Below, piece after piece: positions 6,675 through 28,610 of a DNA stretch of 54,017 nucleotides; the stretch's first letter is position 1, and every line of letters starts with the position of its first letter. Made by a program: the position numbers and the translations under genes. The notes beneath the pieces are model-generated. The model did not search any database. It was not told the origin of the DNA and saw only the letters and a list, made by a program, of their open reading frames with translations. This DNA is from Promethearchaeia archaeon. Its GTDB lineage: Archaea; Asgardarchaeota; Lokiarchaeia; Sigyniarchaeales; SOKP01. The stretch is from NCBI GenBank assembly GCA_029856045.1, contig JAHQWG010000009.1, positions 1 to 54,017 on the forward strand, read 5' to 3'.

Positions 6675-6709
6675 AAGATATTAGTTGAAGTTTTGAAATT
6701 TTATATATA

Positions 6710-6828
6710 TTTCTTTTTTTTATTTCTCTTATTCTGTTAATTCAAATACCTATTTTGACATGAAATTTTTATATAAAAAATTTATGATAAAAAAATAATA
6801 TAACATAAACAAAAAAAAAGAAAAAAAA
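6710..6828. terminator. Probable convergent archaeal oligo-T terminators
   Basis: T-tract at ~6710-6725 after the + gene and A-tract at 6811-6828 (T-tract on the - strand) after the convergent - gene. Confidence 0.4.
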
Positions 6829-6861
6829 TTGAATTTAAACTTTGATGGTTTTCAGTAGATT

Positions 6862-9036: not shown

Positions 9037-9179
9037 TTTTTAATTAAATTTTTAATTTTGGATACTAAAAAAATGTATTAATAATACTGATTCATAATTA
9101 CTTTTAATAATTACTCTTAAATTGCCTTTTATTTAATTATGTGAATATTAAATGTGTTCAAGTTAAAAAAAGAAATAAA

Positions 9180-9935: not shown

Positions 9936-10186
9936 TTTCTCTGCCGGAATTTTCCTTCCATTTACTTCTTTAGTATGAGTTTTTATTTGTGAATTTGATT
10001 TAGTTTTTTGATTTGGAATTTTTTATCCCGCCAGACTTATAATGATTCTATCTTAATAAAATTCTAATTTAAAGATATAACCTATTTATTTTTAAAAAAA
10101 TAGGATATATACATAATATAATCTACTAGGATTGGAATAAAAAATTTTTTCTAATAATTTAAAAAAATAAAAATAATTTTGATAAT

Positions 10187-10906: not shown

Positions 10907-11153
10907 AATATTTCACTCGTATAAAATCAATTTTACATTTGTTATATAATATTTTGAAATTAGATTATATAAGCTTATTTATCATAGGATTAAAAATAAT
11001 AATTAGCACATTATTTCGCTTTTCACATTATTTTAAATTATTTTCTATTAGATATTTTAAAATCAAAATGATAAGGTTTAATGAAAAAAGGAATAAAATC
11101 GAATAATAAAAAACTTATTTCATAAAAAAAAATCCATTAATTTTTAAAACGTT

Positions 11154-13207: not shown

Positions 13208-13319
13208 TTTCTCCTTTTTTAAAAAAATTTTTAGAGTGTAAACAGTTATATTTTTAACAGTTTATTTATTTTTAATAATTTATTTAAGAAAAGAAAAGAA
13301 ATTTAATTGGTTTTTTCGA

Positions 13320-14798
13320 ATGGCTGGAAATTATAGAAAAAAAATATTAGCCGATCAAGGCTATATGCATGCCTTTGATGATGTGTTAATAAAGCCCGGA
13401 TTTACAAATTTTGATCCTAATGAAGTAGATATATCGAGTAGTTTAGGTCCATATAAATTTAATATTCCAATAATGTCAGCGGCAATGGATACAGTTACAG
13501 GAGTAAAAATGGCAATTCAAATGGCATTATTAGGTGGTCTTGGAGTACTTCATAGAAATTGTTCTTGCGAAAAGAGACTTGAAATGGTTAAAAAAGTTAA
13601 AAGAGCCCGCTCCTATATAGTTGATGATGTAGCAACTATTTTTCCAAATTCTCCATTACATGAAGCAATATCTAAAATGGAGCAATTAGGAATCAGTGGT
13701 TTAGTGGTTGTTGATGACAATAATAAAGTTGAGGGGATCCTTACTTCGAGAGATATACCTTTCGACGCAAAGCTGAAAGAAGACGGCTTAGTAAAAGATG
13801 TTATGACAAAAGAAGTAATCACCGGAAATATTGGTATTTCAAGAATAGAAGCTGCTAAAATGTTATATAAGTTTCGGAAGGAGAAATTACCAATAACAGA
13901 TGAGGAAGGAAGGTTAGTTGGGTTAATTACAAATAAGGATCTTAAACCAGATTTTCCAAAAGCTTCTCTTGATAAGAGAGGTCGGCTATTATGTGCTTTA
14001 GCAGTTTCTCCCGTTATGCCTCTTAATGTTAAAGAAAGAAAGATATTTGAAGAAATTGTTGAATATACGGATATATTCTTTATTGATGTTGCAGATTTTT
14101 ATAAAAAACAAGATATTGAGAATACTAAAGAAATAATGGAAACTTTTGACGTTCATTTTATATTGGGGAATATTGGGACTTTTGAAGCAGCTGAATATAT
14201 TTTAACAAAAGTTGATTATGACAGAGATAAATTTATTGCATTAAAAGCAGGAATGGGGTCTGGTTCTATATGTTCAACATCAATTCAAACTGGTGTTGGT
14301 GCTCCAACTTTATTTGCTACAGCTCAAATTGCAGATGCAATAGAAAAATATGATCCAAAAATGGGTTTAATTGCAGATGGTGGCTTTAAAAATTTAGGTG
14401 ATTTACCTAAGGCATTTACCGTTGGAGCAAATATGGTAATGACTGGGCATTTTTTTGCTGGGTGTGTTGAGAGTCCAGGGTTTGTGGATACAATTCAAGG
14501 TCGTAAGGTTAAAGTTTATCGAGGTATGGGAAGTAAAGAAGCAAGATATGTAGCGGGAGATTATATTGTTGATCGCTATTCTGAAGAAACAAAAACATTA
14601 CCAGAAGGTGTGAGTGATTATGTACCTTTTGTTGGGCCCGTAGAAGGGGTTATTGAACAAATGAAAACAGGAATCAAAAATGGGATGATTTATGCTGGGG
14701 CAAAAAATATTAAAGAGATGAAAAATGTTGAAATTGGAATTATTACAATGAGTGGTAAATTAGAAAGCGAGCCTCACGATTTAATTGGTAAAAGGTAA
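13320..14798 (+). CDS. guaB: IMP dehydrogenase with CBS pair
   Basis: FDDVLIKP, PIMSAAMDTVT, GGLGVLHRN, catalytic GSGSICST, IADGG, YRGMGS, PEGV. Confidence 0.92.
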   Translation: MAGNYRKKILADQGYMHAFDDVLIKPGFTNFDPNEVDISSSLGPYKFNIPIMSAAMDTVTGVKMAIQMALLGGLGVLHRNCSCEKRLEMVKKVKRARSYIVDDVATIFPNSPLHEAISKMEQLGISGLVVVDDNNKVEGILTSRDIPFDAKLKEDGLVKDVMTKEVITGNIGISRIEAAKMLYKFRKEKLPITDEEGRLVGLITNKDLKPDFPKASLDKRGRLLCALAVSPVMPLNVKERKIFEEIVEYTDIFFIDVADFYKKQDIENTKEIMETFDVHFILGNIGTFEAAEYILTKVDYDRDKFIALKAGMGSGSICSTSIQTGVGAPTLFATAQIADAIEKYDPKMGLIADGGFKNLGDLPKAFTVGANMVMTGHFFAGCVESPGFVDTIQGRKVKVYRGMGSKEARYVAGDYIVDRYSEETKTLPEGVSDYVPFVGPVEGVIEQMKTGIKNGMIYAGAKNIKEMKNVEIGIITMSGKLESEPHDLIGKR

Positions 14799-14899
14799 TG
14801 GTATTATTTAATTCAATTTTAATTATTTTTCTGATTTTTTGAATTTAGGATTAAGATTTTTAAATTATTTTAATAATAAAAGATGAAATTGGTATAAAT

Positions 14900-16498
14900 A
14901 TGCAAAAAATTCAAAGAGCATTGATTAGTGTATATGATAAAACCAGTATTGTAGAATTCGTTAGGATATTAGTGGATGAATTTGGAATAGAAATATTATC
15001 TACAGGTGGAACGGGAAATCTATTAGAAAAAAATGGGATCGTTTTTAAAAAAATCTCAGAATATACACAAACAGATGAAATGTTTAATGGTAGAGTTAAA
15101 ACCTTACATCCAAAAATCCAGGGGGGCATTTTATTTCGACGAAATATTGTTAATGATATTAAAGATGCTGAAAAATATAATATTCCTTCAATTGATTTAA
15201 TAGTTAGTAACTTGTATCCGTTTAAAGCCGTAATTTCTAAGCCTAAATCTACTTTAACAGAAGCTTTAGAAATGATCGATATTGGAGGCCCAACAATGAT
15301 AAGGGCAGCCGCAAAAAATTATCCAGATGTAGCCGTTATTACTAATTCTAAAGATTATCCACTCATTATAAAAGAGCTAAGGGAAAATGAAGGAGCAATC
15401 AGTGAAAAAACCAGGGCTCTCCTAGCTCAAAAAGTTTTTACTATTATGGCAGAATATAACGCAAATATTGCAAATTATTTACAAAAAATTAATTTCCCTG
15501 ATGAAAAATTTGGAGATAATGTAATAAAAATATATAAAAAAGTGCTTGATGTTAGATATGGAGAAAATTGGGATCAAGATGCTGCATTGTATAAGGATCT
15601 CTCAGCAGACTTAGGACTTCAAAATATTAGACAGATATCAGGAAAAGAAATCTCGTTCAATAATTATTTAGATATTGATGCATGCATGCAAGTTCTTTTA
15701 GAGCTTAGAACAAAAGATTACGTTTGTTCAATTTTCAAACATACAACTCCAAATGGAGTTGCAATAGATAGAAAAAGTCAATTGAATGCAGTAAAAAGAG
15801 CTTTTAACACTGATCCTTTATCTGCTTTTGGAGGAATTTGGGGATTAAATAAGGAATTAACAGTTGAGATTGCAGATTTTATTGTGAATCAAAAGAAAAT
15901 TTTTGTAGAAGTCCTACTTGCACCAACGTATGAAGAAGGTGCTTTAAAAATTCTTAAATCTAAAAAAAATATGAGAATTCTTGAATTTGGAGATCTATTG
16001 AATAAAAGAGTAAAAATATATAAAAATCCAGAAATAAGGAGTGTGCTTGGGGGAGTTTTATTTCAAGATTATGATTTTGGTCCTATAATAAAAGAATGGA
16101 AAGTTGTTAGTAAAAGGAAAATCTCTAAAGATGAAAAAGATGCATTGATTTTCGCCTATGAAATATGTAAATATGCAAAATCAAATTCTGCTGTATTTGC
16201 GAAATGGGACCATGATGGAATCTATACTGTTGGGATAGGAGCAGGGCAACAAAGCCGAGTTCATGTTGTTAATTTGGCACATCAAAAAGCCTTAGAATTT
16301 GGGCATGACCTTTCAAGTAGTGTAATGGGTACAGATTCTTTTTTTCCTTTTCCGGATGGATTAGAAGCTGCAGTAAAAGCTGGTGCTATTGCAATAATTA
16401 ATCCAGGAGGATCCATTCGGGATAATGAAGTTATAAAAAAAGCAGATGAATTTAATTGCGGATTAGTATTTTGTGGCAAACGGGTGTTTCGACATTAA
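14900..16498 (+). CDS. purH: Bifunctional AICAR transformylase / IMP cyclohydrolase
   Basis: RALISVYDK, STGGT, GRVKTLHP, IDIGGPTMIRAAAKN, RYGEN, SFNNYLD, DPLSAFGG, GAGQQSRV, DSFFPFPDG, PGGSIRD. Confidence 0.95.
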   Translation: MQKIQRALISVYDKTSIVEFVRILVDEFGIEILSTGGTGNLLEKNGIVFKKISEYTQTDEMFNGRVKTLHPKIQGGILFRRNIVNDIKDAEKYNIPSIDLIVSNLYPFKAVISKPKSTLTEALEMIDIGGPTMIRAAAKNYPDVAVITNSKDYPLIIKELRENEGAISEKTRALLAQKVFTIMAEYNANIANYLQKINFPDEKFGDNVIKIYKKVLDVRYGENWDQDAALYKDLSADLGLQNIRQISGKEISFNNYLDIDACMQVLLELRTKDYVCSIFKHTTPNGVAIDRKSQLNAVKRAFNTDPLSAFGGIWGLNKELTVEIADFIVNQKKIFVEVLLAPTYEEGALKILKSKKNMRILEFGDLLNKRVKIYKNPEIRSVLGGVLFQDYDFGPIIKEWKVVSKRKISKDEKDALIFAYEICKYAKSNSAVFAKWDHDGIYTVGIGAGQQSRVHVVNLAHQKALEFGHDLSSSVMGTDSFFPFPDGLEAAVKAGAIAIINPGGSIRDNEVIKKADEFNCGLVFCGKRVFRH

Positions 16499-16689
16499 AT
16501 AATATTTCTCACTTTTTCAATAATAACGCAATTAATTCATTCTTTTTTAACTAACTCTTAAAATCAGCATAAATGATTCTTAGATTAACTTGAAATAAAA
16601 GTTTAAATAATTTACGGTGTAAATTAATAATGTTAAATAATTTATTATATAATATTAGGTAATTACATTTTCTTGAGGGTTTTTTCTCC

Positions 16690-16986
16690 ATGGACTTCTT
16701 TATCGAAAATTTAAGAGAAACTATTGATGCCATAAATAAAATAATTGACCGAAAGATTAGTTACGTCGATGTTAAGAGAATTAGAAAAACAATTAATGTT
16801 AAATCCTCAAATAGGTCAAAAATTAATTTTATTTGGCGTTCCTTGAAAGTTCTTGAAAATGATGGAATCCTTAGATGCAATGGAAGTAATAGCCCTAAAA
16901 CTTATAAAATTGTAAAATTGCAAAAAATAGATATTGACAGTCTATTAAATAAAGTTAAAGGAAAGAAAAAAGTTATTAAAGTTTAA
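16690..16986 (+). CDS. Small basic winged-helix-like DNA-binding protein (putative)
   Basis: Lys/Arg-rich 98 aa; SLKVLENDGILR...PKTYKIV resembles a recognition helix followed by a wing. Confidence 0.5.
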   Translation: MDFFIENLRETIDAINKIIDRKISYVDVKRIRKTINVKSSNRSKINFIWRSLKVLENDGILRCNGSNSPKTYKIVKLQKIDIDSLLNKVKGKKKVIKV

Positions 16987-17182
16987 TCCTACTTATTTGT
17001 ATCTGATTTCTAAATAATTATTACTTTATATTAAAAATTTAATCAAAATACTTTATGTTTTTAGGTATAAATTCCATTCCCGAGAGGTTTTTGTTTTTCA
17101 ATAGAGAATGATATTGTTCAAGATTTAAAATTTCGAGTGAATAAAAAATAAAAGATTTAAAAATTTAAAGATAAATATAGTT

Positions 17183-19894
17183 ATGGATATTAATCCTAAT
17201 GACTTTATCGATAAAAATTTAATCAAAACTATTAATAAACTAAATAAATTTATAGATAAGGACAAAAAAGAGAAAATTAAGGAAATTATTGAAGAGTTAG
17301 AGCAATTTACAAAAGTCGATCATCTTAATATTCAAGCCTTATATATTTTAAGTATTCTTGCGGAGAAATTTCCACAACTTTTCAATAGAAACAACATAGA
17401 ATCCATTAAAGAAAATCTGGATTCCAATAATGTAAAAGCAAAAATAAATACGTTGATAATTATTGGATTTTATTTACGTGAAAACCTTAAAAAAGAAAAA
17501 GTATTAGTTAAAAAATTTTTAGATTATCTAAAAGAAGACAATAAAGAAATTGTTGAAAATATACTATTTTTTTTAAATTATTTTGCTGAAAATGAACCAG
17601 ATATTATTGAAAATAATAGTGATTTAATTTTCGATTTACTCCATAAAGAGAAGGATATTAATAAAATAAATATATTTTTAGAAATTCTTGATACATTTAA
17701 ACTAAGAAATCTTTCAGTAATATTGAGAGTTAGAGAGACATTAAAATATTTAATTCAAACCTATAACAATGAACATATATTAAAGAGAGCAATTGAAATA
17801 CTCTCAAAATTTATTCCTGAAGTTAAAAACATTGAATATTCCAAAATGAAAAAAAATGATTTATTAGAAAGAATTACAAACAAAATTTTACTGAAAAGAC
17901 ATAATTTGACCGTTAAAAATGGAAATCTAAAAAAAATTATTAATGATTTTAAAAAAAAAATAAAAAATACAATAAAAAATGAAGATATTTATTATTTCTA
18001 TATAAAGGACAAAGAGATACTATTTTTTATCGAATTTGAGAAATCTAATCTTTTACACTTTTTAGAAAATAAACGGATTTCCCTTGAGGAATTGCGAGAA
18101 ATTTTATCTGAAGTAATCGAAAACATTTCACAAATAAAGTTATTTTTGTTAAACTTAATTCAATTTAAATTTATAAAAGGATATGTTTCTGAGTTTTATT
18201 TTTACTCTTATGGTTATTTAAAAAAAGAGATATTTACAGAAATTGTGGATCGAGGTTTTATAGATTTAACTAAATATAGGCATATTGAGACTAATTTTAT
18301 AGAATTAATTCTTGGGGATATAAAGTCTGAATTAAATTACACATTATTATATAATAATTCTAAGAATGGTGTTTACTCTCTCAAAAAAATTATCGAAGAT
18401 ATTTCCCATTTAGCCTCAAAAGAAAGTATTATAGATATGAAACAGTATCACGGATTATTTGATGATAATAATTTCTTAAAAATTATAAAGAAACTTCCCA
18501 AAGGTTATTTGACAGATTATCATATAAGAACAATTTGGTTAACTAACGTTGGAAAAACAAAAATAGTAAATGAATTTGAGAACTCTAAAAAAATTGGTTT
18601 TTTTGATAAGAAGAAGATTAGTGAAAAATTGAGTGTGCCTGAAATTCTTCTTGATTCATTTATCCATTCAATCCTAAAGTCACAATTAGGTTTTTGGGAT
18701 AAATTTCAAGAAATTTTCTATTATTCTAAATATATCCAAGACCAAATAGACAAATTTAAAAACATTGCAGATGAGACGATAAAAAACCAGAAAATTAATT
18801 CTTTGGCACATAAATTAAATATAGAGCAGGACCAAATTCAATTAAAAATTGATGAGGAAATTCAAAAATTTGGTGAAATAATTAAAAATAAAGGAGAGAT
18901 AAGTATTATGGAATACATGGATAAAATGGGGATGAATTCTAAAAGATTTTTTAATTTCATTAACAGTCTAAATATTACTTATTTCAAAAAAGGTGATATG
19001 CTTTACTTAAATGAGGATAGAATATTAGATATAAAAAGTGAAGTTAGAAAACAGATAAAGCTTCAATCGAAATCTCAATCTCAAATAATTTTAGGGAATT
19101 TTAATATAGAAATGTCCATCGTCAAAGAAATTATTGAAGATTTAGAACAATCGGAGAATTTAAAAGGTATTTTTTATGAAGAAGAGAATCAATTAATCTT
19201 TTATACTAAGAAAGGAATTAATGACAAAATTCTGGATTCTTCTGATATTTTCTCTATAGATGAATTATTTCCTGGGAAAAAATTGAGTAAAGATGAGTAT
19301 TTATTGATTGAGGATATTATACAATCTCTGATTAAAAATAAAACTCTTATTGGAACATATGATATATCGAATCGCAATTTTGTAAGTTCTGATATTGAAT
19401 TTTCAACAAATTATAATGATTCTATTAACCAATTTGTAAATTTAATTGATTATTATTGCTCAATATTCAAAAAAACGTTTGAATCCATAAGAAAAATATT
19501 AACAAAAGATAATGAGATCATTCGACCAGCTGAAGTTACTTTTATCCAAAAATCTTTTGATGAAATAATAAAATCTTATGTACGTTGGCGCTCCCAAATA
19601 AACATAATGAAATTTAAACAAACATCCTTTTTTTTAAGACAACAAGGTATAAGCTCTAAAAAAGAATTTGAATTATTATCTGAAGATGCTAGAAAAGAAA
19701 TAAAAGATTTTAAAGAAGAACAACTAATTAGAGAAGCAGAAGATATGTTTAATGTGTGGGTTAAATTATTTAAAGAATTGGAATTAAATTATGGAAAATT
19801 GATTTTCTATCAAAAACAAATATTAATTAAGCCAGATGATAAGGAAATCAAAAAAAAATTAGAGGAACTCTATGATTTACTTGATTTAAAATAA
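17183..19894 (+). CDS. Large hypothetical protein: N-terminal HEAT/ARM-like helices, tandem winged-helix-like units, C-terminal helical region
   Basis: Uninterrupted 903-aa ORF; amphipathic helical repeats in the first ~230 aa; recurring 'aromatic-T/S...E/KI...G(F/E)I(D/S)' units. Fold is inferred. Confidence 0.55.
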   Translation: MDINPNDFIDKNLIKTINKLNKFIDKDKKEKIKEIIEELEQFTKVDHLNIQALYILSILAEKFPQLFNRNNIESIKENLDSNNVKAKINTLIIIGFYLRENLKKEKVLVKKFLDYLKEDNKEIVENILFFLNYFAENEPDIIENNSDLIFDLLHKEKDINKINIFLEILDTFKLRNLSVILRVRETLKYLIQTYNNEHILKRAIEILSKFIPEVKNIEYSKMKKNDLLERITNKILLKRHNLTVKNGNLKKIINDFKKKIKNTIKNEDIYYFYIKDKEILFFIEFEKSNLLHFLENKRISLEELREILSEVIENISQIKLFLLNLIQFKFIKGYVSEFYFYSYGYLKKEIFTEIVDRGFIDLTKYRHIETNFIELILGDIKSELNYTLLYNNSKNGVYSLKKIIEDISHLASKESIIDMKQYHGLFDDNNFLKIIKKLPKGYLTDYHIRTIWLTNVGKTKIVNEFENSKKIGFFDKKKISEKLSVPEILLDSFIHSILKSQLGFWDKFQEIFYYSKYIQDQIDKFKNIADETIKNQKINSLAHKLNIEQDQIQLKIDEEIQKFGEIIKNKGEISIMEYMDKMGMNSKRFFNFINSLNITYFKKGDMLYLNEDRILDIKSEVRKQIKLQSKSQSQIILGNFNIEMSIVKEIIEDLEQSENLKGIFYEEENQLIFYTKKGINDKILDSSDIFSIDELFPGKKLSKDEYLLIEDIIQSLIKNKTLIGTYDISNRNFVSSDIEFSTNYNDSINQFVNLIDYYCSIFKKTFESIRKILTKDNEIIRPAEVTFIQKSFDEIIKSYVRWRSQINIMKFKQTSFFLRQQGISSKKEFELLSEDARKEIKDFKEEQLIREAEDMFNVWVKLFKELELNYGKLIFYQKQILIKPDDKEIKKKLEELYDLLDLK

Positions 19895-19916
19895 ATATAT
19901 ATATGAAAATTAAGTG

Positions 19917-20726
19917 TTATTTTAAGATTTTAATTAAATCAGTAGCTTTATTTAAGACAATATCTGGTTTAATTTCTGATTTTTCAATCATTTCTCGAGA
20001 TGTCTCACCCGAGAATACACAAATAGTAGTTACCCCTGCTTCTTTTCCCATTCTTATGTCAGTATACAATCGATCTCCAACAATTACGGCATCTTTTGGA
20101 GATATTTTTAATTCTCTTAATTTAAATAGAAGCATTTCTTTATTTGGCTTACCGAAAATTTTCGGTTTTTTGCCCGTTGCCTCATATAATAAAGAAATTA
20201 TTGCTCCTGCATCGGGGATATATCCTTTTCTTGTAGGACATACTTTATCAGGATGAGTGGCAATGTAAGGCAAGTTATCCTGTAAAAAATATGAAACTTT
20301 AACAAGTTTCTCATATGTAAGTTCTTTATCAAAACCTAAAACAACAATTTCTGGATCCTTATCTGTAATTTCAAATCCTTCTTCGATAAATTCAGATTGC
20401 AAAGATTTCGTTCCAAGAAGATAGATTTTTTTAACTTTTTTTTTTTTTAAATATTGTATCGTTGGGTGCGTTGATAAAATAATATTTTCAATATTAATAT
20501 CTAATCCTAACTTCTCCAATTTAAGGAGATATTCTTTAGTAGAAATACTTGAATTATTTGATAAAAAGAAGATTTTTTTATCAAGAGATTTCAATTTATT
20601 AATTAGATTTAGAATTCCTTCAAATAGTAAATCTTCTAAATAGAGAGTACCATCTAAATCAAAAAAATAAACTTTTTTATTTTTTAAAAGTTCAAAGATT
20701 TCATTAAAAGTCGTTTTTGTTTCCAT
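19917..20726 (-). CDS. HAD-superfamily subfamily IIA hydrolase (NagD-like)
   Basis: FDLDGTLY, FLSNNS, ATHPD, PDAG, GKP, VGDRLYTDI, SGE. Confidence 0.92.
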   Translation of the reverse strand: METKTTFNEIFELLKNKKVYFFDLDGTLYLEDLLFEGILNLINKLKSLDKKIFFLSNNSSISTKEYLLKLEKLGLDINIENIILSTHPTIQYLKKKKVKKIYLLGTKSLQSEFIEEGFEITDKDPEIVVLGFDKELTYEKLVKVSYFLQDNLPYIATHPDKVCPTRKGYIPDAGAIISLLYEATGKKPKIFGKPNKEMLLFKLRELKISPKDAVIVGDRLYTDIRMGKEAGVTTICVFSGETSREMIEKSEIKPDIVLNKATDLIKILK

Positions 20727-20879
20727 TTAAGTTTACTAAACTATAATTATTTATATAACATATAAAAAAAGGATAAAAATTTGATATTGAATTAATATTG
20801 AAAAATTAATATAATTTAATTAAATTCATTTCTTTAGATTTAAATAGAAATAACATATAAATTATTTTTTCTAATCACA

Positions 20880-22574
20880 ATGACCCTAACAAATAGAATT
20901 TCACCCGAAGATAGAAGAAAATCCTTAAAACAATTACTTAACAAGAAAAATTTAATAAGAATTATAGAAGCTCATAATGGGCTTAGTGCAATAATTGTGA
21001 ATAATATAAAAGAAAAAGTTGGAGATGAAATTCTTGAATTTGATGGAATTTGGGTTAGTAGTTTAACAGAAAGCGCAGCTAAAGGATACCCTGATGCAGA
21101 TATAATTGGAATTGAATCAAGATATGAAACTATTAGGCAAATATTAAATAGCTCAAATAAACCATTAATTGTAGATGGTGATACTGGAGGAGAGGCAACA
21201 AATTTTGAATATTTTGTAAGATCTTTAGAAGATATGGGAGTTTCAATGGTTATCATAGAGGATAAGAAATTTCCAAAAAGAAATAGTTTGGATCCTGGTG
21301 CTAAACAAACACAAGAAGATCCCGATATATTTGCATTGAAAATTAAAAGAGGGAAAAATATTCAAATAACCTCTGATTTTATGATTGTTGCAAGGATTGA
21401 AAGCTTAATATCGGGTTCGGGACTAAGAGACGCATTGTATAGAGCTAAGAAATATCTACAAGTTGGAGCAGATGGGATAATGATACATTCCAAGGACACT
21501 AATCCTAAAGAAATATTTGATTTCGCAATAGAGTATAATAAATTATCTAGGGAGTTAGGAATCAATAAACCATTAGTTTGTGTTCCAACAACCTATAATA
21601 CTGTAACAGAACATGAATTGAAAGATAAAGGTTTTAATATTGTTATATATGCAAATCATATATTGCGTTCAGCTCATAAAGCAATGAAAAAAGCCGCATC
21701 AATTATTCTAAAGAATCAAAGGGGCTTAGAAGTTGAATCTGTATGTAGTCCAGTTAATAATATTTTTAAAGATGTTGGATTCTTAGAAGTAAAAGAAAAA
21801 GATTTGAAATATGATATCGGTAAGATAAGAGTTATTATTCCTGCGGCAGGTAAAGATCCCAATTTTAACATTCCAAAATCGATGATAAATATAAAAGGAA
21901 AATCAATCCTTCAAAGACAAATAAACATTTTAAACCGTTGTGGAATTAAAGATATCAATGTAATTAGAGGTTATAAAAAAGATCTTATCAATGTAGAAGG
22001 AGTTCAATATATTGATAATAATAAATATTTAACAACCTTCATATTACATTCATTATTTAAAGCCGAAGATAATATGAAAAACGGCTTTATCTATATAAAC
22101 TCTGATATAATATTTAATGACCAAATTATAAACAATTTATTGAATTCTAAAGGAGATATTGTTTTAGTAGTAGATAATTCCTATTTTTATCATAAACATG
22201 AAGTTGATAAGAAACTCGATTTAGTTTTGACTAAAAATAAACCCAACAAAGAGTTCAGGAGATTATACCAAAAAGAAAATGAAATAATAAGAATTGGTAA
22301 AACATTAGATAAAAATATGGCAGATTATGAATTTGTGGGGCTTACTTATTTTTCTGAATACAGTGTGGATATTATTAGAAAAATATATCATGATTGTAAA
22401 ATAAATCATGAAGGTCCATTTCATGAAGCTGTTTCATTTGAAATGGCATCATTTACTGATTTTATTCAAGAAGTAATTGACAGAGACTTTAAAGTGAACG
22501 TATTAGAGGTATATAAGGGATGGATTGAAATTCACAATAAAAAGGATATTGAGATTGCTGAGAGGATAATATGA
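20880..22574 (+). CDS. aepX: Phosphoenolpyruvate mutase fused to C-terminal NTP-transferase (PntC/LicC-like cytidylyltransferase)
   Basis: EAHNGLSA, FDGIWVSS, DGDTG, PEP mutase signature EDKKFPKRNS (EDKx5NS), ARIES, GADGIMIHS, VPTTY, IYANH; C-terminal IIPAAG...PKSM...GYKK...SDIIF...WIEI. Confidence 0.93.
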   Translation: MTLTNRISPEDRRKSLKQLLNKKNLIRIIEAHNGLSAIIVNNIKEKVGDEILEFDGIWVSSLTESAAKGYPDADIIGIESRYETIRQILNSSNKPLIVDGDTGGEATNFEYFVRSLEDMGVSMVIIEDKKFPKRNSLDPGAKQTQEDPDIFALKIKRGKNIQITSDFMIVARIESLISGSGLRDALYRAKKYLQVGADGIMIHSKDTNPKEIFDFAIEYNKLSRELGINKPLVCVPTTYNTVTEHELKDKGFNIVIYANHILRSAHKAMKKAASIILKNQRGLEVESVCSPVNNIFKDVGFLEVKEKDLKYDIGKIRVIIPAAGKDPNFNIPKSMINIKGKSILQRQINILNRCGIKDINVIRGYKKDLINVEGVQYIDNNKYLTTFILHSLFKAEDNMKNGFIYINSDIIFNDQIINNLLNSKGDIVLVVDNSYFYHKHEVDKKLDLVLTKNKPNKEFRRLYQKENEIIRIGKTLDKNMADYEFVGLTYFSEYSVDIIRKIYHDCKINHEGPFHEAVSFEMASFTDFIQEVIDRDFKVNVLEVYKGWIEIHNKKDIEIAERII

Positions 22575-23707
22575 TTACTTCTTTTGAATTATATAATATA
22601 TTTAAAAAATACGAATTGACCTTCTTTACGGGGATTCCAGATTCTACATTTGCAGATTGGATGTTTTTTTTAGCAGACCATGATGAAAAATTATTAATAA
22701 ATATTATTGCTTGTAATGAATGTGAATCTATTGCAATATGTGTAGGATATTATTTAGCAAGTGGTAAAATTGGGGTTGCTTATATGCAAAATGCTGGTTT
22801 TGGAAAAACAATAAATCCATTGACATCGCTTTGTAACCCAGAACTCTATTCAATTCCTGTTTTATTAATGATTGGATGGAGAGGAGAGCCTGGAAAGTTA
22901 GATGAACCCCAACATAAAAAGATGGGAAGAATTATGAATTTATTATTAAAAGATTTAGAAATTCCTTATGTAATTTTGCCTTCTGATATTGGAGGTATTG
23001 AGAGGGAAATAAAAAAAGCAAAAAATTACTTGGAAACAAATAAAGCTCCTTATGCACTAATAATTAAAAAAGGGATTATTAAAAATAAAAAATCGAAGGA
23101 AAATTTATTATTAAATTATGAAATGACAAGGGAAATGGCTTTAAAATTAATTATTGATAAATTCGATCAAAATGAAATAATTATTAGTACAACAGGTAAA
23201 ACTTCAAGAGAACTTTATGAATATAGAGAAGGCTATAATAAAATTCACAAAAAGGATTTTTATATGGTTGGATCTATGGGTTGTGCAGCATCGATAGGAC
23301 TTGGTATTGCACTTCAAAAAAAAGGTAGAAGAGTGATTGTTATAGATGGTGATGGGGCTCTTATTATGCAGATGGGAGCGTTAGCAACAATTGGAAATAA
23401 ATCTCCCCCTAATTTGATTCATATTGTTTTTGATAATGAAGCACATGATTCAACAGGAGGACAACCAACAGTTTCCCCATCCTTAAATTTAAAAGAAATT
23501 GCTTTAAATTGTAATTATAAATATTCTACATTAATAAAATCAAAAAGTCAATTAATATTTGAATTGGATAAGGTTAAAAAATTAGATGGTCCTTCAATGT
23601 TAGTTATTAAAGTAAAAAAAGGGTCTCGAAAAGATTTGGGAAGACCAAAAACCTCTTTTATCAAACTTAAAAATAATTTTATCAGATATTTAGAAGATAA
23701 TGATTGA
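22571..23707 (+). CDS. aepY: Phosphonopyruvate decarboxylase (ThDP-dependent)
   Basis: FFTGIPDS, YMQNAG, NPLTSL, IGWRGEPG..DEPQH, STTGKTSREL, VGSMG, DGDG, HDSTGGQPT, LGRP. Confidence 0.93.
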   Translation: MITSFELYNIFKKYELTFFTGIPDSTFADWMFFLADHDEKLLINIIACNECESIAICVGYYLASGKIGVAYMQNAGFGKTINPLTSLCNPELYSIPVLLMIGWRGEPGKLDEPQHKKMGRIMNLLLKDLEIPYVILPSDIGGIEREIKKAKNYLETNKAPYALIIKKGIIKNKKSKENLLLNYEMTREMALKLIIDKFDQNEIIISTTGKTSRELYEYREGYNKIHKKDFYMVGSMGCAASIGLGIALQKKGRRVIVIDGDGALIMQMGALATIGNKSPPNLIHIVFDNEAHDSTGGQPTVSPSLNLKEIALNCNYKYSTLIKSKSQLIFELDKVKKLDGPSMLVIKVKKGSRKDLGRPKTSFIKLKNNFIRYLEDND

Positions 23708-24836
23708 ATATATTGGAAAAAATTCTATTAAACATTTGCAATCAATAATAAAAAAATATTCTTTTAAAAATATATTTCTTGTAACGGGTAAAAAATCGTT
23801 TGAAATATCTAAAGCAAAAAAAATAGTAATGAATGTTCTGAAAGATTGCAATATCATGCGGTTTTTTAATTTTTCACCCAATCCCAAGATTGAAGATATA
23901 AAAAAAGGATTAGAACTTTTTAAAAAGGATAGATATAATGTAATTATAGCGGTTGGTGGAGGTTCTGTAATAGATATTGCTAAAAGTATTGCAATTTTTT
24001 CTACAAATAATGGAATGATTGAAAAATATATTAAAAAAGAAATAAATGTTGAAAAAAATGGACCTCCACTAATTTGCATCCCAACTACTGCTGGTTCTGG
24101 AAGTCAAGCAACTCATTTCGCAGTTATATATATAAACAAAAAAAAATATTCTTTAGGACATCCCACCTTTATGCTTCCAGATTATAGTATTGTTGATCCA
24201 CAATTTACTTATAGCTTACCTCCAAAAATTACTGCCTCAACAGGTATGGATGCTTTATCTCAAGCGATTGAATCATATTGGAATATAAATTCTACCAAAG
24301 AATCAAAAAAATATGCAGAAAAAGCAATAAAATTAGTTGTGAATAATCTAGTTAAGGCGGTTAATAATCTAAATAAAGAATCAAGACGAAATATGTCTAT
24401 AGCAGCACATTATGCAGGTAAGGCAATAAATATTACTAAAACTACGGCTTGTCATGCAATATCATATCCTATTACTTCATATTTTAATGTTCCACATGGT
24501 CATGCAGTTGCATTAACTCTTCCAAATATGTTTATCTATAATTCAGAAGTAAATGAAATTGACATTCTAGACCCTCGAGGATTAGATTATGTCAAAAAAA
24601 CAATGAAAAAATTAGAAACAATTATTGGAGTATCTACATCTTTCGAAGCTAAACTAAAAATTGAACAGATAATGCTAAAAATTGGATTGGAAATTAAGTT
24701 AAATAAATTGGGAATCAAAACACAAGAAGATATAGAATTAATTATAAAAAATGGATTCAATCCTGAACGTGTAAAAAATAACCCAAGAAAACTAACAGAA
24801 GAGAATTTAAGAAATATTTTAGAAGAAATTAAATGA
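23700..24836 (+). CDS. Fe-dependent alcohol dehydrogenase, probable phosphonoacetaldehyde reductase (2-hydroxyethylphosphonate-forming)
   Basis: GGGSVIDIAK, PTTAGSGS.ATHFAV, DALSQAIESYW, GKAINITKTTACHAISYP, PHGHAV; overlaps directly downstream of ppd. Confidence 0.85.
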   Translation: MIEYIGKNSIKHLQSIIKKYSFKNIFLVTGKKSFEISKAKKIVMNVLKDCNIMRFFNFSPNPKIEDIKKGLELFKKDRYNVIIAVGGGSVIDIAKSIAIFSTNNGMIEKYIKKEINVEKNGPPLICIPTTAGSGSQATHFAVIYINKKKYSLGHPTFMLPDYSIVDPQFTYSLPPKITASTGMDALSQAIESYWNINSTKESKKYAEKAIKLVVNNLVKAVNNLNKESRRNMSIAAHYAGKAINITKTTACHAISYPITSYFNVPHGHAVALTLPNMFIYNSEVNEIDILDPRGLDYVKKTMKKLETIIGVSTSFEAKLKIEQIMLKIGLEIKLNKLGIKTQEDIELIIKNGFNPERVKNNPRKLTEENLRNILEEIK

Positions 24837-25564
24837 AGGTAATAATTTTAAACGCAGGCATTGGAAAACGATTACAACCAATAACAAACAAGATACCAAA
24901 ATGTCTCATTGAAATATCTAAAAATTTAACAATTCTTGATTATCAACTTAAGAACGTTATAGAGTGTAAATTAAATGATCTAATTATTCTCACAGGAGCA
25001 TTTGAAGATAAAATAAAAGCACATATTAAAAAAAATTACAATTCGTTAAAAGTTAAATATGTTTATAATCCAAAATACGAAAAAACAAATTACATCTATT
25101 CGATGTATCTTACTAAAGAGATAATTGACGAAGATGTAATATTATTTCACGGAGATTTGATATTTTCAAATTTATTATTAAAAAAAATTATAAAATCAAA
25201 ATTATCGAATTGTGTTTTAATAAATAAAAAACTACATCCTAAAAAAGATTTTAAGGCATATATTGTTTCTGATAGAGTTTTAAAAATTGGTGTTAATATT
25301 TTCGGTCCTAATTCGGCCTTTTTAGCGCCATTATATAAATTAACAAAAAATTTTTTTAAAAAATGGTTAAATCAAATTGAAAAATTTGTACTGGCTAATA
25401 GATTAAATGTTTATGCTGAAGATGCTTTAAATAAAATTTTAGAACAAGTGATTTTGAACCCATTATATTTTAATGAAAGAAATTGTATGGAAATTGATGA
25501 TTTTGAAGATTTAAATTTAATTCGAAATCTTATGAAAAATGTAGATTTCCGTAATAATCACTAA
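24833..25564 (+). CDS. LicC/PntC-like nucleotidylyltransferase (probable phosphonate cytidylyltransferase)
   Basis: ILNAGIGKRL.P.T..IPKCL, NPKYEKTNYIYS, HGDL, MEIDDFEDL; ATGA overlap with the ADH gene. Confidence 0.85.
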   Translation: MKVIILNAGIGKRLQPITNKIPKCLIEISKNLTILDYQLKNVIECKLNDLIILTGAFEDKIKAHIKKNYNSLKVKYVYNPKYEKTNYIYSMYLTKEIIDEDVILFHGDLIFSNLLLKKIIKSKLSNCVLINKKLHPKKDFKAYIVSDRVLKIGVNIFGPNSAFLAPLYKLTKNFFKKWLNQIEKFVLANRLNVYAEDALNKILEQVILNPLYFNERNCMEIDDFEDLNLIRNLMKNVDFRNNH

Positions 25565-25590
25565 ATTCAATATCTATTTAATTTTATTAA

Positions 25591-26796
25591 TTATTTTATT
25601 CTTAGATTCAATAACTTGGCAACACGCTCACATGATTTGTCATCGATATATTTATTAAAAAGATCTCTAATTTTATTTCTTTTAGATTCATATTTGTGTG
25701 CCAATTCGGATATATTTTTTAAATAGTAAATCAATTCTCGACCATTTTTAGCAATTGGACCGGGGGCAATTTTCTCATAGTCTTTATAATACATCCCCCG
25801 TTGCTTCTGATATAATTCTAAATCATAGGCAAAAACAATAATAGGTTTTTGAAGAATTGAAAAATCGTGCATAATAGAAGAATAATCAGAGATTAATATA
25901 TCTGTTATTAACAATAATTCTTGTGTGTCAGAATATTTATCTGGTATAATCAATCCTCTTAAATCTTTTAAGTCAAAAGCTTCAATAAAAATATGAGCTT
26001 TATAAATTAAGATTGAATTAGATTCTTCCAAAAAGTTTTCTAATTCTAGTAATTCTTCTTTTGAAAAAGGCATTTTACCAACAAAGTCTTCTCGGAAAGT
26101 TGGAGCATACGTTATGATGTTTTTAATCCCTTCTGGAACTCTAAATTTTTGTTTTAATTTTTTTATTTCTTCTTTCTTTTTATTAAGAAGAAAATCATTT
26201 TGAGGTAAGCCAGTTATTTTGATTTTTTTTTGAGGAATTTTAAATGCCGATTTGAAATTTTTTTTGATTTCTTCCGATGGAGACAATAAATAGGTCAAAT
26301 CTTTTACGAGTTTTTTTAATACTATATAATTATATCGATTACCAAGGAATTTAAGAGCATCAAAACCAATTTTCTTCATTGGATTTCCATGCCAAGTAAG
26401 TATTATTTGAGTTTGAGGAGAAAATTCTATAGGTAATATATCACCCTCACCATGAGTAATAAAAATACAGCGAGCAGAACGTAATTTAAAAAATGCTTTG
26501 AGTGAAAATGCATAGAGAGAATTAAAACCCTGTTCTTGAAGATGTTTTACAATTTCTTTAGATCTTGAGATCCAGAGACATTTATAATTAGAATATTTAT
26601 TAAAATAGAGAAAAAGATATTTTGTATTACCCAAAAATGCTTTACCAAGATTCCCACCAAAAATCAATAAATCTTTGTCAATTTTAGGTCTTATAAAGAT
26701 TGATATGATTTTTAATATTTTTAAAAATGAAATCTTTACTCTAGATAAATTAATATTAGTAATATTAAAAATATCAATTAGCCTTTTTGAAATCAT
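25591..26796 (-). CDS. CDP-glycerol:glycerophosphate transferase family protein (TagF/TagB-like)
   Basis: GNTKYLF, TWHGNPMKKIG, TGLPQND, YAPTFRE, TDILISDYSSI..DF, YDL..Y...RG, PGP. Confidence 0.88.
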   Translation of the reverse strand: MISKRLIDIFNITNINLSRVKISFLKILKIISIFIRPKIDKDLLIFGGNLGKAFLGNTKYLFLYFNKYSNYKCLWISRSKEIVKHLQEQGFNSLYAFSLKAFFKLRSARCIFITHGEGDILPIEFSPQTQIILTWHGNPMKKIGFDALKFLGNRYNYIVLKKLVKDLTYLLSPSEEIKKNFKSAFKIPQKKIKITGLPQNDFLLNKKKEEIKKLKQKFRVPEGIKNIITYAPTFREDFVGKMPFSKEELLELENFLEESNSILIYKAHIFIEAFDLKDLRGLIIPDKYSDTQELLLITDILISDYSSIMHDFSILQKPIIVFAYDLELYQKQRGMYYKDYEKIAPGPIAKNGRELIYYLKNISELAHKYESKRNKIRDLFNKYIDDKSCERVAKLLNLRIK

Positions 26797-26954: not shown

Positions 26955-28610
26955 TTACGGTATCATATTTGGAGGTGGGGTTTTTAGACAAAATCCACAT
27001 TTACCAAATGAAGAAATTGTTTGATCCCAACAATGTTTATGATATAATCTTTCACAGTACGGACATTCCGTTCGACATTGATTACCATCAGCAGACGCAA
27101 TAGGTAATTTACATGCACCGTCTGGACATTGAATCTGATGACAAATTACACACGAAATAACCGAAACTTCAAAAATCTTTTTAGATATTGCATTAAATAA
27201 ATCAATCAGATATGTAAAAGGCGTCCAGTCATTAAAAAATTGCTGAATAGATGCTTCAAGTTTCTTTTTTATTGGCTCGTGGGTCTCATCTTCAAATTCA
27301 TTTAATACTTTAAGTTCGGGAGGATTCATAGGATAATTTGTGGGTAAAATTGCTTGAAATTCAAAAATTACATTCTCGGTTTTCATTTTACCTTTCATTT
27401 TAAGATTAATTGTATTTGTGAAAGCGTCAAATTGAAGCTCATCAATGCCACCTTTTAACAAATTAATCTCAAAATTTACTCTCGAATTTTTATCGACTAA
27501 CCAAGATATTTCTCGTAAAATGTCCACTACTTCTGATTGTTTAGATATCCAACTCTTGATTGAGTCTAACTGAGAAGGAGAAATTTGTATTAAACTATTT
27601 AATTCTGGGCTATATTGCAAAACGGGTGGGTTTGGATATTTGCTAATATCTATCTCTAAATCATATTCTTTAAATCCATAGGTAAGTAAATGAACGTTCA
27701 ACTTTGAAATATTTCCCTCTATTGGCTCAGCTTGATATTCTCCTGATATTTTTTTGAATTGCATTTCAATATCTTTTACGAAAAATAATTTACTTTCGAT
27801 TTCTCGTATTAACTCTACAATATGTGGAGGTGATTTTGAGTTCCATTTTTTAAGCAAATCAAGTTCTTTCTTTGGTTCTACTAAAAGATTTATTATTTCT
27901 TCTGGAAATGTAATGATGGGTTTTTCAGGGTAGTTATTGAAATTAATCTCGATGATAAATGTTTTTTCTAAGGTAATTGTGAGATATACGTTGATATCTG
28001 CTTTATTTTTTTCTATTTGATCAATTGGGTATTCCATTTGGATTAATCCTAATTCTGTAGTGACTTTTAAAGGCATAGTTAATGATTCTTCAGTAAAAGA
28101 TTGCATTTCTGGTTTTGGGGGTTGAAGAGATTCTTCCTTCGTTTTTTCTTCTTCATAATAGTCAGGAGTAATGAACGAGTCTTTTTGAAGAGATATTTCT
28201 TCTGCAGGATATTTGGAATAATCTGGAGTAATAAAATCTTCTGATTTCTGGGATTCTTCAACAAGAGGTTGAATATGACCTAAATCTTCTTCAATTTTTG
28301 CCGTTCCACTTAAAGCACTTTGAATTTTTCCTTTTAATTCTTTTATTATATCAACAACTCTTGAATCAGGAGTCCAATTTTTCTCTTTATCAAGATTTAT
28401 ATCTCCTAATAAATCTTTTATCTCTTGATGAGGTATTATTTGAGGAGGGGCATGAGGAAAAGTTTCATCAAATTTCACTTCTATAATGAATTTTTGTTTT
28501 GAGCTTTCATATACAGCTCCATATAAATGAGCAATATTTCCAGATACCATCCAAAAAGAAAATTGTGATGCGATAATTTGAGCTTCTTTTAAAATTCTCT
28601 GTTTTTCCAT
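26955..28610 (-). CDS. Tandem UBC-like (UEV/RWD) domain protein with C-terminal RING-variant Zn finger; candidate E3 ligase
   Basis: Four (F/Y)Pxx(x)P motifs, each followed by a W(T/N/I)(P/S) helix motif; C-terminal CVIC...CPYC.RLYHKHC...CGFC. Confidence 0.7.
   Translation of the reverse strand: MEKQRILKEAQIIASQFSFWMVSGNIAHLYGAVYESSKQKFIIEVKFDETFPHAPPQIIPHQEIKDLLGDINLDKEKNWTPDSRVVDIIKELKGKIQSALSGTAKIEEDLGHIQPLVEESQKSEDFITPDYSKYPAEEISLQKDSFITPDYYEEEKTKEESLQPPKPEMQSFTEESLTMPLKVTTELGLIQMEYPIDQIEKNKADINVYLTITLEKTFIIEINFNNYPEKPIITFPEEIINLLVEPKKELDLLKKWNSKSPPHIVELIREIESKLFFVKDIEMQFKKISGEYQAEPIEGNISKLNVHLLTYGFKEYDLEIDISKYPNPPVLQYSPELNSLIQISPSQLDSIKSWISKQSEVVDILREISWLVDKNSRVNFEINLLKGGIDELQFDAFTNTINLKMKGKMKTENVIFEFQAILPTNYPMNPPELKVLNEFEDETHEPIKKKLEASIQQFFNDWTPFTYLIDLFNAISKKIFEVSVISCVICHQIQCPDGACKLPIASADGNQCRTECPYCERLYHKHCWDQTISSFGKCGFCLKTPPPNMIP

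Follow-up and report, generated by a model that had tools for sequence, protein, structure and literature searches.

A putative cassette for decorating the cell surface with phosphonate, at a variable glycan locus in a Lokiarchaeia-type Asgard archaeon

Introduction

The methylphosphonate pathway of Nitrosopumilus maritimus consists of PEP mutase (PepM), phosphonopyruvate decarboxylase (Ppd), an Fe-ADH and MpnS. For the Asgard archaea we found no paper on PepM or phosphonate clusters in the literature. Their surface is the contact interface of these syntrophic archaea with their partners, and to our knowledge nothing is known about its chemistry.

Several bacterial systems combine related genes. 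In the Pnt system a Ppm enzyme is fused to a PF12804 nucleotidyltransferase and accompanied by a separate cytidylyltransferase, PntC; Ppm is set apart from the isocitrate-lyase superfamily by the motif EDKxxxxxNS (Rice et al. 2019, PMC6697681). As cited in the same paper, the early fosfomycin steps of Streptomyces wedmorensis involve Fom1 (CyTase-PepM), Fom2 (Ppd) and FomC (Fe-ADH). In a survey of ppm neighbourhoods, 8.5% were of the 2-hydroxyethylphosphonate (HEP) type (PMC8942020). In the capsule locus BT1708-BT1721 of Bacteroides thetaiotaomicron, BT1716 belongs to the CDP-glycerol glycerophosphotransferase family; four genes away are aepX (BT1720) and BT1721, a member of the phosphocholine-cytidylyltransferase family (PMC10434189).

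Here we analyse a locus within a stretch of 54,017 nucleotides (the window). Judging from its sequence, we lean slightly towards reading it as a self-contained phosphonate surface-decoration cassette that sits in a variable glycan locus.

Gene content of the locus

Four forward-strand genes overlap one another (ATGA at 22571, ATGATTGA at 23700 over 8 bp, ATGA at 24833) and converge on a TagF-like gene (Table 1). All five reading frames are intact, and the positions and overlaps of the original prediction proved exact. The matches to Fe-ADH, NTP_transferase and Glyphos_transf all exceed the Pfam gathering scores. That the cluster contains no aminotransferase or cupin gene also held, as profile matches place none inside or adjoining it. 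An rmlABCD operon adjoins the cassette.

Table 1 Features of the phosphonate locus, in positions of the window
Feature	Position	Strand	Remarks
PEP mutase with C-terminal PntC/LicC-fold domain, 564 aa	20880-22574	+	ORF intact
PEP mutase domain, residues 1-300 of the 564-aa fusion	20880..21779	+	TIGR02320, EDKKFPKRNS
PntC/LicC-fold nucleotidyltransferase-like domain, PepM-fused	21780..22574	+	PF12804 sub-threshold, LicC 1jyk, AF2
Ppd, phosphonopyruvate decarboxylase, 378 aa	22571-23707	+	TIGR03297, GDG motif
Fe-ADH family reductase, 378 aa	23700-24836	+	PF00465, PF25137, GGGSVID motif
NTP2, canonical LicC/PntC-like nucleotidyltransferase, 243 aa	24833-25564	+	PF00483
TagF-like (GT-B) putative phospho-alcohol transferase, 401 aa, convergent	25591-26796	-	PF04464
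Presence/absence block, absent from G146 and G148	20787..26730	.	blastn of window
HAD-IIA hydrolase beside the cassette	19917..20726	-	present in cassette-less congeners too

Predicted route to 2-hydroxyethylphosphonate

PepM is a single-copy gene in the genome, and its product exceeds the equivalog cut-off of TIGR02320 (343.1 bits against 319.55; 345 bits in the genome scan). It carries the motif EDKKFPKRNS, and the catalytic EDK...NS motif is kept in all 121 sequences compared (P0001 and 120 homologues). Ppd likewise exceeds its equivalog, TIGR03297 (431 bits, cut-off 312.5), matches TPP_enzyme_N and TPP_enzyme_C, and shows the GDG thiamine-diphosphate motif at residue 260. The third enzyme is a family match (PF00465 and PF25137, with GGGSVID) that misses the cut-off of every NCBIfam equivalog: TIGR03405 (Phn_Fe-ADH / PsrA) gives 192 bits against 423.7 and ranks third after ErcA and lactaldehyde reductase. 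For the Lokiarchaeum ossiferum orthologue TIGR03405 is the top match, at 259 bits also below cut-off.

Its role as a predicted phosphonoacetaldehyde reductase is nevertheless well supported by comparison. A synteny survey across Asgard genomes, called for in the original prediction, found the PepM/Ppd/ADH/NTP2 core in two gene orders and about 25 loci, in which the ADH adjoins PepM/Ppd. In the sister genus g10 the ADH is swapped for an AEP transaminase (TIGR03301, 437 bits, cut-off 360.8). Three natural Ppd-ADH fusions occur among the best 60 ADH relatives, and relatives at 40-46% identity lie in CyTase-PepM/Ppd/ADH operons within glycan islands.

PepM would convert PEP to phosphonopyruvate, Ppd would decarboxylate this to phosphonoacetaldehyde and so drive the unfavourable PepM equilibrium forward, and Fe-ADH would turn the aldehyde into HEP. 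This route, as originally predicted, draws strong support from the equivalog matches together with the operon, fusion and AEPT-alternation comparisons, and we consider its three steps very probable. That the pathway ends in 2-aminoethylphosphonate or a different phosphonate, with the ADH acting on another substrate and a distant enzyme taking phosphonoacetaldehyde, is very unlikely. Such a product would fit an ADH above no equivalog threshold and the six Fe-ADH paralogues that the genome carries, but it conflicts with the Ppd-ADH fusions and the ADH/AEPT alternation. The suggested search for aepZ points the same way: no match reaches the AEP transaminase cut-off anywhere in the genome, and the top-ranking class-V aminotransferase is a housekeeping gene with 73-93% identity in PepM-less relatives.

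The mpnS search proposed alongside it used cupin size as a proxy for the methylphosphonate/HEPD branch. Bicupin dioxygenases of the HEPD/MpnS type measure about 440-460 aa, and no cupin of that size was found genome-wide, the five Cupin_2 matches lying in open frames of 96-123 aa (all ≤125 aa).

Candidate nucleotidyltransferases

The domain fused to PepM shares the fold of PntC and LicC. PF12804 reaches 26.6 bits, slightly below the cut-off of 27, a profile match to LicC (1jyk) has an E of 2e-17, and an AF2 model (pLDDT 86) finds its best matches in PntC-AEPT (6pd1/6pd2) and LicC. Despite this fold, the domain does not carry the G-x-G-x-R-L and PK signature: its loop reads AAG-x-D-x-x-F and has lost 5 residues by deletion, and 102 of 117 homologues lack the Arg of G-x-G-T-R-L. 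Of the proposed fusion of a PEP mutase to a cytidylyltransferase, the PEP mutase and the PntC/LicC fold stand, but the cytidylyltransferase label is not secured because the signature arginine loop is missing. The domain may have a regulatory or structural role, or it may act as an atypical transferase.

NTP2 matches LicC (1jyk, E 2e-14) and PntC (6pd1, E 8e-6), and its motifs G-x-G-x-R-L, PK, HGDL and EID..D are invariant in 14 orthologues. Its gene always follows the ADH gene in the Asgard loci compared, and the NTP2 subfamily covaries with the branch enzyme (ADH or transaminase); identity to the g10 NTP paired with the AEP transaminase is only 26-27%. In the window NTP2 is translationally coupled to the HEP genes and is the sole canonical LicC-like NTP beside the TagF-like gene. 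Activation to CMP-HEP, as first proposed, is plausible for NTP2 with its canonical motifs and doubtful for the PepM-fused domain with its degenerate loop. We regard it as fairly likely that NTP2 would join HEP and CTP to CMP-HEP.

A native and variable locus

The block is native DNA of a Lokiarchaeia-type Asgard archaeon. Compared with random windows of the genome, its tetranucleotide distance ranks at the 68th percentile, and in the PepM phylogeny that had been suggested the PepM-NTP lineage is one Asgard clade with support 100. Full-length relatives at ≥67% identity are all Promethearchaeota MAGs of one clade; bacterial relatives reach at most 51%. The block recurs, left flank included, at 94% identity in the congener G145. 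The Asgard origin that was initially put forward is confirmed. Mis-assembled or contaminating bacterial DNA is effectively refuted by the composition, the clade and the G145 copy, and by a TagF 5′ remnant in G146 and G148; we found no support for it, though similar cassettes do exist in bacteria.

The locus is variable, and the cassette represents one of its alleles. Two congeners, G146 and G148, have lost it by deletion, with about 65 bp in its place (blastn against G148:C12 and G146:C12). In both, the 5′-terminal ~22 codons of the TagF-like gene remain, ATG included, and it is this surviving remnant that marks the difference as a deletion, one that removed the TagF-like gene along with the rest of the cassette. 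In the near-identical contig L140 the locus holds TagF and an NTP-HAD fusion instead of the cassette: TagF is followed directly downstream by a 501-aa NTP_transferase-HAD fusion, whose C-terminal half is a HAD with 84% amino acid identity to the window HAD-IIA. The window HAD-IIA hydrolase is possibly linked to the cassette or a relic of an alternative one. TagF alleles are 78% identical in nucleotides where the flank is 97.7% identical, and an indel block in g10 again holds phosphonate genes and one TagF-like gene.

Of 400 Asgard genomes, 43 encode PepM, among them those of the cultured L. ossiferum and Promethearchaeum syntrophicum; 24 genomes have both PepM and TagF, 19 PepM only, 34 TagF only and 323 neither. 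The closed L. ossiferum genome has PepM and no TagF. GenBank labels its PepM '2-methylisocitrate lyase'. Clusters of both cultured species show an N-terminal PF01467 CyTase-PepM architecture, that of L. ossiferum with an MFS transporter inside; g11 clusters contain an MFS transporter, a sulfatase-family protein and a CDP-alcohol phosphotransferase (CDP-OH_P_transf).

Candidate transferase and fate of the product

The TagF-like protein matches PF04464 with 271 bits and aligns to TagF of Staphylococcus epidermidis (3l7m, E 4e-38). Its TWHGNP and KAHIF motifs align with the two catalytic His positions, which we take to be H444 and H584, and both His are conserved. It is the genome's only TagF/LicD-type transferase: LicD was not found genome-wide, and neither was TagD (TIGR01518) above cut-off, its two weak matches being CoaD-like small PF01467 proteins. 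Via the His pair, the enzyme would move the hydroxyethylphosphonyl group from CMP-HEP onto a hydroxyl that belongs to a surface glycan or glycoconjugate, with release of CMP. We infer this step from sequence and give it an even chance. It is helped by the loss and exchange of the gene together with the cassette and by its standing as the only such transferase, and weakened by a 71%-identical TagF without PepM and by the TagF-only and PepM-only Asgard genomes. The adjoining rmlABCD operon suggests that the acceptor may contain rhamnose.

A possible, though less probable, alternative is that HEP or CMP-HEP is made while the TagF-like enzyme takes a non-phosphonate CDP-alcohol, the phosphonate going to another acceptor via another enzyme (a lipid via a CDP-alcohol phosphotransferase, for example) or staying soluble. 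The closest TagF relative outside the genus, the one with 71% amino acid identity, sits at the same locus of a near-identical, PepM-less genome beside the NTP-HAD fusion, and 34 Asgard genomes have TagF without PepM. A TagF-rich island in G173 includes two inositol-1-phosphate synthases and an NTP transferase, and both the CDP-OH_P_transf gene of the g11 clusters and the TagF-less L. ossiferum fit this alternative as well. The surface-decoration reading is further weakened by TagF relatives at 52-57% identity, whose glycan loci have ABC2 transporters but no PepM, and by PepM-adjacent TagF-likes, which spread over at least four clades. A CDP-alcohol donor is, however, harder to reconcile with the window's genome (G000), which has neither TagD nor another recognisable donor pathway beside its single TagF-like gene. 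The sole adjoining canonical LicC-like NTP is coupled to the HEP genes, and the TagF allele moves with the cassette.

The product could also be a secreted, antibiotic-like small-molecule phosphonate, which we hold to be quite unlikely. MFS transporters lie within the g11 and L. ossiferum clusters, and CMP-HEP is described as a fosfomycin intermediate in PMC6697681, citing Cho 2017. Tailoring genes argue otherwise, as radical-SAM methyltransferase, HppE-like epoxidase, ATP-grasp and NRPS genes are all absent beside the cluster in the window; so does the setting, with rmlABCD and the TagF-like gene adjoining and related HEP operons in glycan islands.

Within surface decoration, the reading we prefer, a bolder but unlikely version is that the TagF-like enzyme depends on CMP-phosphonate and polymerises HEP through its free 2-hydroxyl to a teichoic-acid-like poly(hydroxyethylphosphonate), as one allele of a hypervariable serotype-like locus. 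If true, no polymer with a phosphonate backbone would have been known before, and C-P surface chemistry would be shown for the first time in the archaea most closely related to eukaryotes.

Implications

A conserved, strain-variable cassette predicts hydrolysis-resistant C-P groups on the Asgard surface. The prediction is directly testable by 31P-NMR, as related clusters occur in the cultured P. syntrophicum MK-D1 and L. ossiferum B-35. Phosphonate enzymology gains three leads from the comparison: an ADH subfamily with Ppd fusions and a D-x-x-x-Q motif as its marks, a PntC-fold domain that is fused to PepM and has no arginine in its catalytic loop, and TagF-like enzymes, which are candidates for the phosphonyl-transfer step that is still missing. 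Asgard archaea living in anoxic sediments would become potential producers of HEP-type phosphonates there.

Comparison with known systems

The window resembles Pnt in its PepM-LicC-type fusion, its Ppd, a second LicC/PntC-like NTP one or two genes off, and its surface-glycan setting. It differs in the branch enzyme (Fe-ADH towards HEP, where Pnt has an AEP transaminase), in the candidate transferase (TagF-like rather than LicD-like), in its Asgard host, and in a fused domain that is C-terminal and without the signature Arg. With Fom1, Fom2 and FomC it shares the predicted sequence from PEP over phosphonopyruvate, phosphonoacetaldehyde and HEP to CMP-HEP, and the N-terminal PF01467 CyTase-PepM architecture of Fom1 recurs in L. 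ossiferum and P. syntrophicum. Unlike Fom, the fused domain of the window is of the C-terminal PF12804 type, Fom3/Fom4-type tailoring is absent, and the proposed fate is surface decoration instead of an antibiotic.

N. maritimus provides an archaeal PepM-Ppd-ADH route to HEP as well, whereas the window's genome lacks a MpnS/HEPD-sized cupin and adds nucleotidyltransferases and a TagF-like gene. With TagF/TarF/TarL (PF04464; PDB 3l7i-m, 8va1) the TagF-like protein is homologous in the catalytic domain over residues 43-399, including both catalytic His. In contrast to these glycerol- and ribitol-phosphate transferases, it is a 401-aa catalytic domain only, in an archaeal host without TagD/CDP-glycerol synthase, and its presumed donor is a CMP-phosphonate. 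The capsule locus of B. thetaiotaomicron, too, combines a TagF-like gene with aepX, but it is bacterial, AEP-type by inference from the aepX name, and its TagF link is likewise putative.

Given the Pnt and Fom1-Fom2-FomC logic, the share of HEP-type ppm neighbourhoods and this B. thetaiotaomicron gene pairing, the novelty first suggested for the locus was too high. The chemistry is already known from bacteria; here the cassette is found in an Asgard archaeon.

Gene content and origin of the cassette

All five open reading frames of the original prediction were found exactly where it had placed them, together with the overlaps (ATGA at 22571, ATGATTGA at 23700 and ATGA at 24833) and the EDKKFPKRNS motif in the first protein. 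Two of the encoded proteins pass NCBIfam equivalog cut-offs, namely PepM (TIGR02320, 343 bits vs 319.6) and Ppd (TIGR03297, 431 bits vs 312.5). The third is a two-domain Fe-ADH, the fourth (NTP2) a member of NTP_transferase and the fifth a member of the Glyphos_transf family (271 bits); the genes of the last two converge across a gap of 26 bp.

Locations of the cassette genes, neighboring features and compared loci
Feature	Location	Strand	Description
Large ORFs	window 484-9036		three ORFs of 1046, 1017 and 724 aa
HAD gene	window 19917-20726	-	HAD-IIA hydrolase
PepM-NTP fusion	window 20880-22574	+	first cassette gene
PepM-fused domain	window 21780-22574	+	C-terminal PntC/LicC-fold part of the fusion
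Ppd	window 22571-23707	+	second cassette gene
Fe-ADH	window 23700-24836	+	third cassette gene
NTP2	window 24833-25564	+	stand-alone LicC/PntC-like nucleotidyltransferase
TagF-like gene	window 25591-26796	-	fifth cassette gene
551-aa protein	window 26955-28610		between the TagF-like gene and rmlD
Small PF01467 gene	window 38038-38478		pantetheine-phosphate adenylyltransferase
L. ossiferum cluster	L059, G138:C1:4923000-4942999		CyTase-PepM architecture
P. syntrophicum cluster	L060, G143:C1:1146000-1165999		CyTase-PepM architecture
Genus g11 cluster	L039, G181:C78:70155-90154		extended on one strand
TagF-rich glycan island	L087, G173:C2:262000-281999		genus g10
TagF-rich glycan island	L088, G169:C10:322000-341999		genus g10
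Actin-family protein	L075:4429-5964		congener G145, 511-512 aa
Actin-family protein	L140:2964-4502		JGI contig, 511-512 aa

The window is an entire 54-kb contig of a 3.34-Mb genome (55 contigs, estimated completeness 100%), and its remaining genes are housekeeping (IMPDH, PurH, PheRS alpha and beta, PPDK, CoaD) plus an rmlABCD operon. The three large ORFs near its start are without a Pfam family. The 551-aa protein beyond the TagF-like gene has weak UQ_con and RWD matches.

Mis-assembled bacterial DNA, which the original prediction had named as a threat to its reading, is contradicted by several lines of evidence. At 67% identity or above, every full-length relative of the PepM fusion is from a Promethearchaeota/Promethearchaeia MAG; the next-ranked are bacterial PepM domains at 42-51%. 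All 21 Asgard PepM-NTP sequences group together in the PepM tree (support 100), on a long stem. GC content is 26.7% in the cluster vs 29.4% genome-wide, and its tetranucleotide distance ranks at the 68th percentile among windows drawn at random from the genome. Finally, both the block and the sequence to its left recur in the congener G145 (MAG isolate 6H3_1), at 94% identity. Because of these close relatives, the clade, the composition and the second copy, mis-assembly or contamination is excluded for practical purposes.

The branch point: an Fe-ADH and the predicted product

The ADH missed every NCBIfam equivalog cut-off, including that of Phn_Fe-ADH (192 bits vs 423.7), and its role was therefore examined through gene context. 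The synteny survey proposed originally, now run across Asgard genomes, found PepM, Ppd, ADH and NTP2 contiguous in about 25 loci and in two gene orders, with ADH and NTP2 adjacent in every case. Genus g10 keeps the PepM-NTP/Ppd backbone and has a different NTP and an aminotransferase in place of the ADH; this aminotransferase lies above the equivalog cut-off for AEP (2-aminoethylphosphonate) transaminase (437 bits vs 360.8). Given this exchange, the branch-point slot can be filled by either the ADH or an AEP transaminase.

A search of 1.84 billion representatives returned three natural Ppd-ADH fusions among the best 60 ADH relatives, the Ppd part of each being bona fide (413-489 bits). These fusions (P0131, P0157 and P0180) are metagenomic proteins of 735-747 aa. 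Among four loci of ADH relatives, those at 46% and 40% identity stand in CyTase-PepM/Ppd/ADH operons within glycan islands, a third adjoins a PstS-like ABC importer, and the contig of the fourth is too short to read.

The phosphonate-linked ADH subfamily shares the pattern G-x-D-A-x-x-Q-x-x-E, and three of the other Fe-ADH paralogues in the genome have His at the Gln position. This Gln, residue 188 of the cassette ADH, is found in 113 of 125 scorable relatives, among them all three Ppd-ADH fusions and the orthologues of L. ossiferum and P. syntrophicum. We take it to occupy the D-x-x-x-H metal-motif position, replacing a His metal ligand.

The searches that the original prediction proposed for AEP-transaminase and large-cupin genes elsewhere in the genome found neither. 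With TIGR03301 and TIGR02326 the sole match was a housekeeping class-V aminotransferase, the genome's best, which is retained at 73-93% identity in five PepM-less relatives; the AEP route is thus rejected. Cupins longer than 125 aa are absent from the genome. From the ADH context and these two absences, 2-hydroxyethylphosphonate (HEP) is the predicted product, and its synthesis by the cassette is well supported as a prediction from sequence.

Two nucleotidyltransferase-like proteins

In NTP2 the motifs G-x-G-x-R-L, PK, HGDL and EID..D are invariant, and LicC and PntC are its nearest relatives with solved structures. HEP-type NTP2s share 42-63% identity among themselves and 26-27% with the g10 NTP that partners the AEP transaminase. 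Split by branch in this way, the nucleotidyltransferase co-varies with the branch enzyme, as it should if its substrate is the product of that branch. Activation of HEP with CMP by NTP2 is likely on sequence grounds.

The PepM-fused domain is a different case. Its AF2 model (pLDDT 86) best matches PntC-AEPT (TM 0.72) and LicC. Its signature loop is conserved but departs from the canonical form: five residues are deleted, leaving AAG-x-D-x-x-F, and 102 of 117 homologues do not have the arginine seen in LicC's GTRL. AAGxxxRL is retained by the stand-alone paralogues beside the g11 and L. ossiferum clusters. The fused domain may be a pseudo-enzyme or an atypical transferase. The closest bacterial PepMs have N-terminal extensions instead of a C-terminal NTP fusion, and in bacteria Rice et al. 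characterized separate PntCs alone, not Ppm-fused domains (PMC6697681).

The predicted transfer step and a variable locus

The TagF-like protein aligns to the catalytic domain of S. epidermidis TagF (E 4e-38) with both catalytic histidines kept, and its gene is the only TagF-like one in the genome. Neither TagD nor LicD was found in the genome; the small PF01467 gene considered as TagD is a pantetheine-phosphate adenylyltransferase (142 bits vs a cut-off of 104).

Is this transferase dedicated to phosphonates? In favor of a link to the cassette are its standing as the sole TagF-like gene, the missing TagD and LicD, a cassette deletion that took TagF with it (described below), and co-occurrence. 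Across 400 Asgard genomes, which are related and not independent, 24 have both PepM and TagF, 19 PepM only, 34 TagF only and 323 neither. The link is also supported by a g10 indel (G169 vs G173) made up of the phosphonate genes and one TagF, a block bordered by two further, paralogous copies of TagF. Against a dedicated link, the tree has no one clade of phosphonate-specific TagFs and spreads the PepM-adjacent ones over at least four clades. Three further observations count the same way: the closed L. ossiferum genome has PepM and no TagF; g11 clusters have, instead of TagF, an MFS transporter, a sulfatase-family protein, a GT4 and a CDP-alcohol phosphotransferase; and in G173 the TagF-rich island also encodes two inositol-1-phosphate synthases plus an NTP transferase, suggestive of CDP-inositol-type donors. 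The g11 genes are alternative candidates for the transfer step, with phosphonolipids as a possible product. The g11 sulfatase-family protein has an alkaline-phosphatase fold, and locus L039 adds a canonical stand-alone NTP. The G173 island and its G169 counterpart also hold a tandem TagF-TagF fusion (814-815 aa), GT4s, a sulfotransferase and a radical-SAM/SPASM gene, a content that suggests a CDP-inositol-fed, teichoic-acid-like polymer in Lokiarchaeia.

Closer relatives show how the locus varies. Two congeners, G148 (100% complete) and G146, have about 65 bp in place of window 20787-26730; since the first ~22 codons of TagF survive in both, they represent a deletion of an ancestral TagF-containing cassette. 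The 551-aa protein, 91-93% conserved in congeners, lies outside this indel. Outside the genus, the nearest TagF relative (71% aa) stands on the near-identical JGI contig L140 (Ga0315547_1000007), whose left flank matches window 12459-20709 at 97.7% nucleotide identity. Its region 9001-11746, syntenic with window 19917-26796, reads FkbM-methyltransferase, TagF (78% nt) and a 501-aa NTP_transferase-HAD fusion, PepM being absent; the TagF allele is thus strongly divergent and the flank is not. The window's HAD gene corresponds to the C-terminal half of this fusion (84% aa identity), for which an NCBIfam search gave no specific function. FkbM/GT2 genes flanking TagF in G145 and L140 are absent from our assembly. 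In the variable flank past TagF, both also encode an actin-family protein with C-terminal zinc-ribbon domains, without an orthologue in our genome, where only paralogous actins (36-38% identity) occur.

Three states of the locus thus occur among near-identical genomes: TagF accompanied by NTP-HAD, TagF accompanied by the phosphonate cassette, and a deletion. Judged by gene content, the pattern is one of apparently exchangeable surface-glycan cassettes, the transferase moving with its donor pathway. It speaks for a surface role and for TagF being paired with the NTP beside it, and shows that phosphonate specificity is not intrinsic to this TagF lineage. Transfer by the TagF-like enzyme is plausible.

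Distribution and relation to known systems

Of 400 genomes of the phylum, 43 encode PepM, as do 30 of the 134 in the window's family and two of the five in its genus. A second architecture, an N-terminal PF01467 CyTase-PepM (Fom1-like) with Ppd, ADH and NTP2, occurs in two closed genomes identified by exact-sequence match as Candidatus Lokiarchaeum ossiferum B-35 and Promethearchaeum syntrophicum MK-D1. In GenBank, the L. ossiferum PepM (UYP47934.1) is labeled '2-methylisocitrate lyase', and the ADH and NTP 'hypothetical protein'.

We found no literature linking Asgard archaea, L. ossiferum or Prometheoarchaeum to phosphonate biosynthesis or pepM beyond survey-level mentions of archaeal phosphonate BGCs (PMC11051675). 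Elsewhere, a PepM-NTP fusion has been noted in a Borg (10.1101/2024.11.05.622173), HEP-type clusters make up 8.5% of surveyed ppm neighborhoods (PMC8942020), and B. thetaiotaomicron has a TagF-family gene four genes away from aepX (PMC10434189). The finding is valuable mainly because cultured Asgard archaea allow an immediate test of the prediction. We conclude that the cassette is genuine, native to its host and well conserved, the Asgard version of a phosphonate-decoration system already known; it follows the same logic as the bacterial Pnt pathway and Fom1/Fom2/FomC (PMC6697681).
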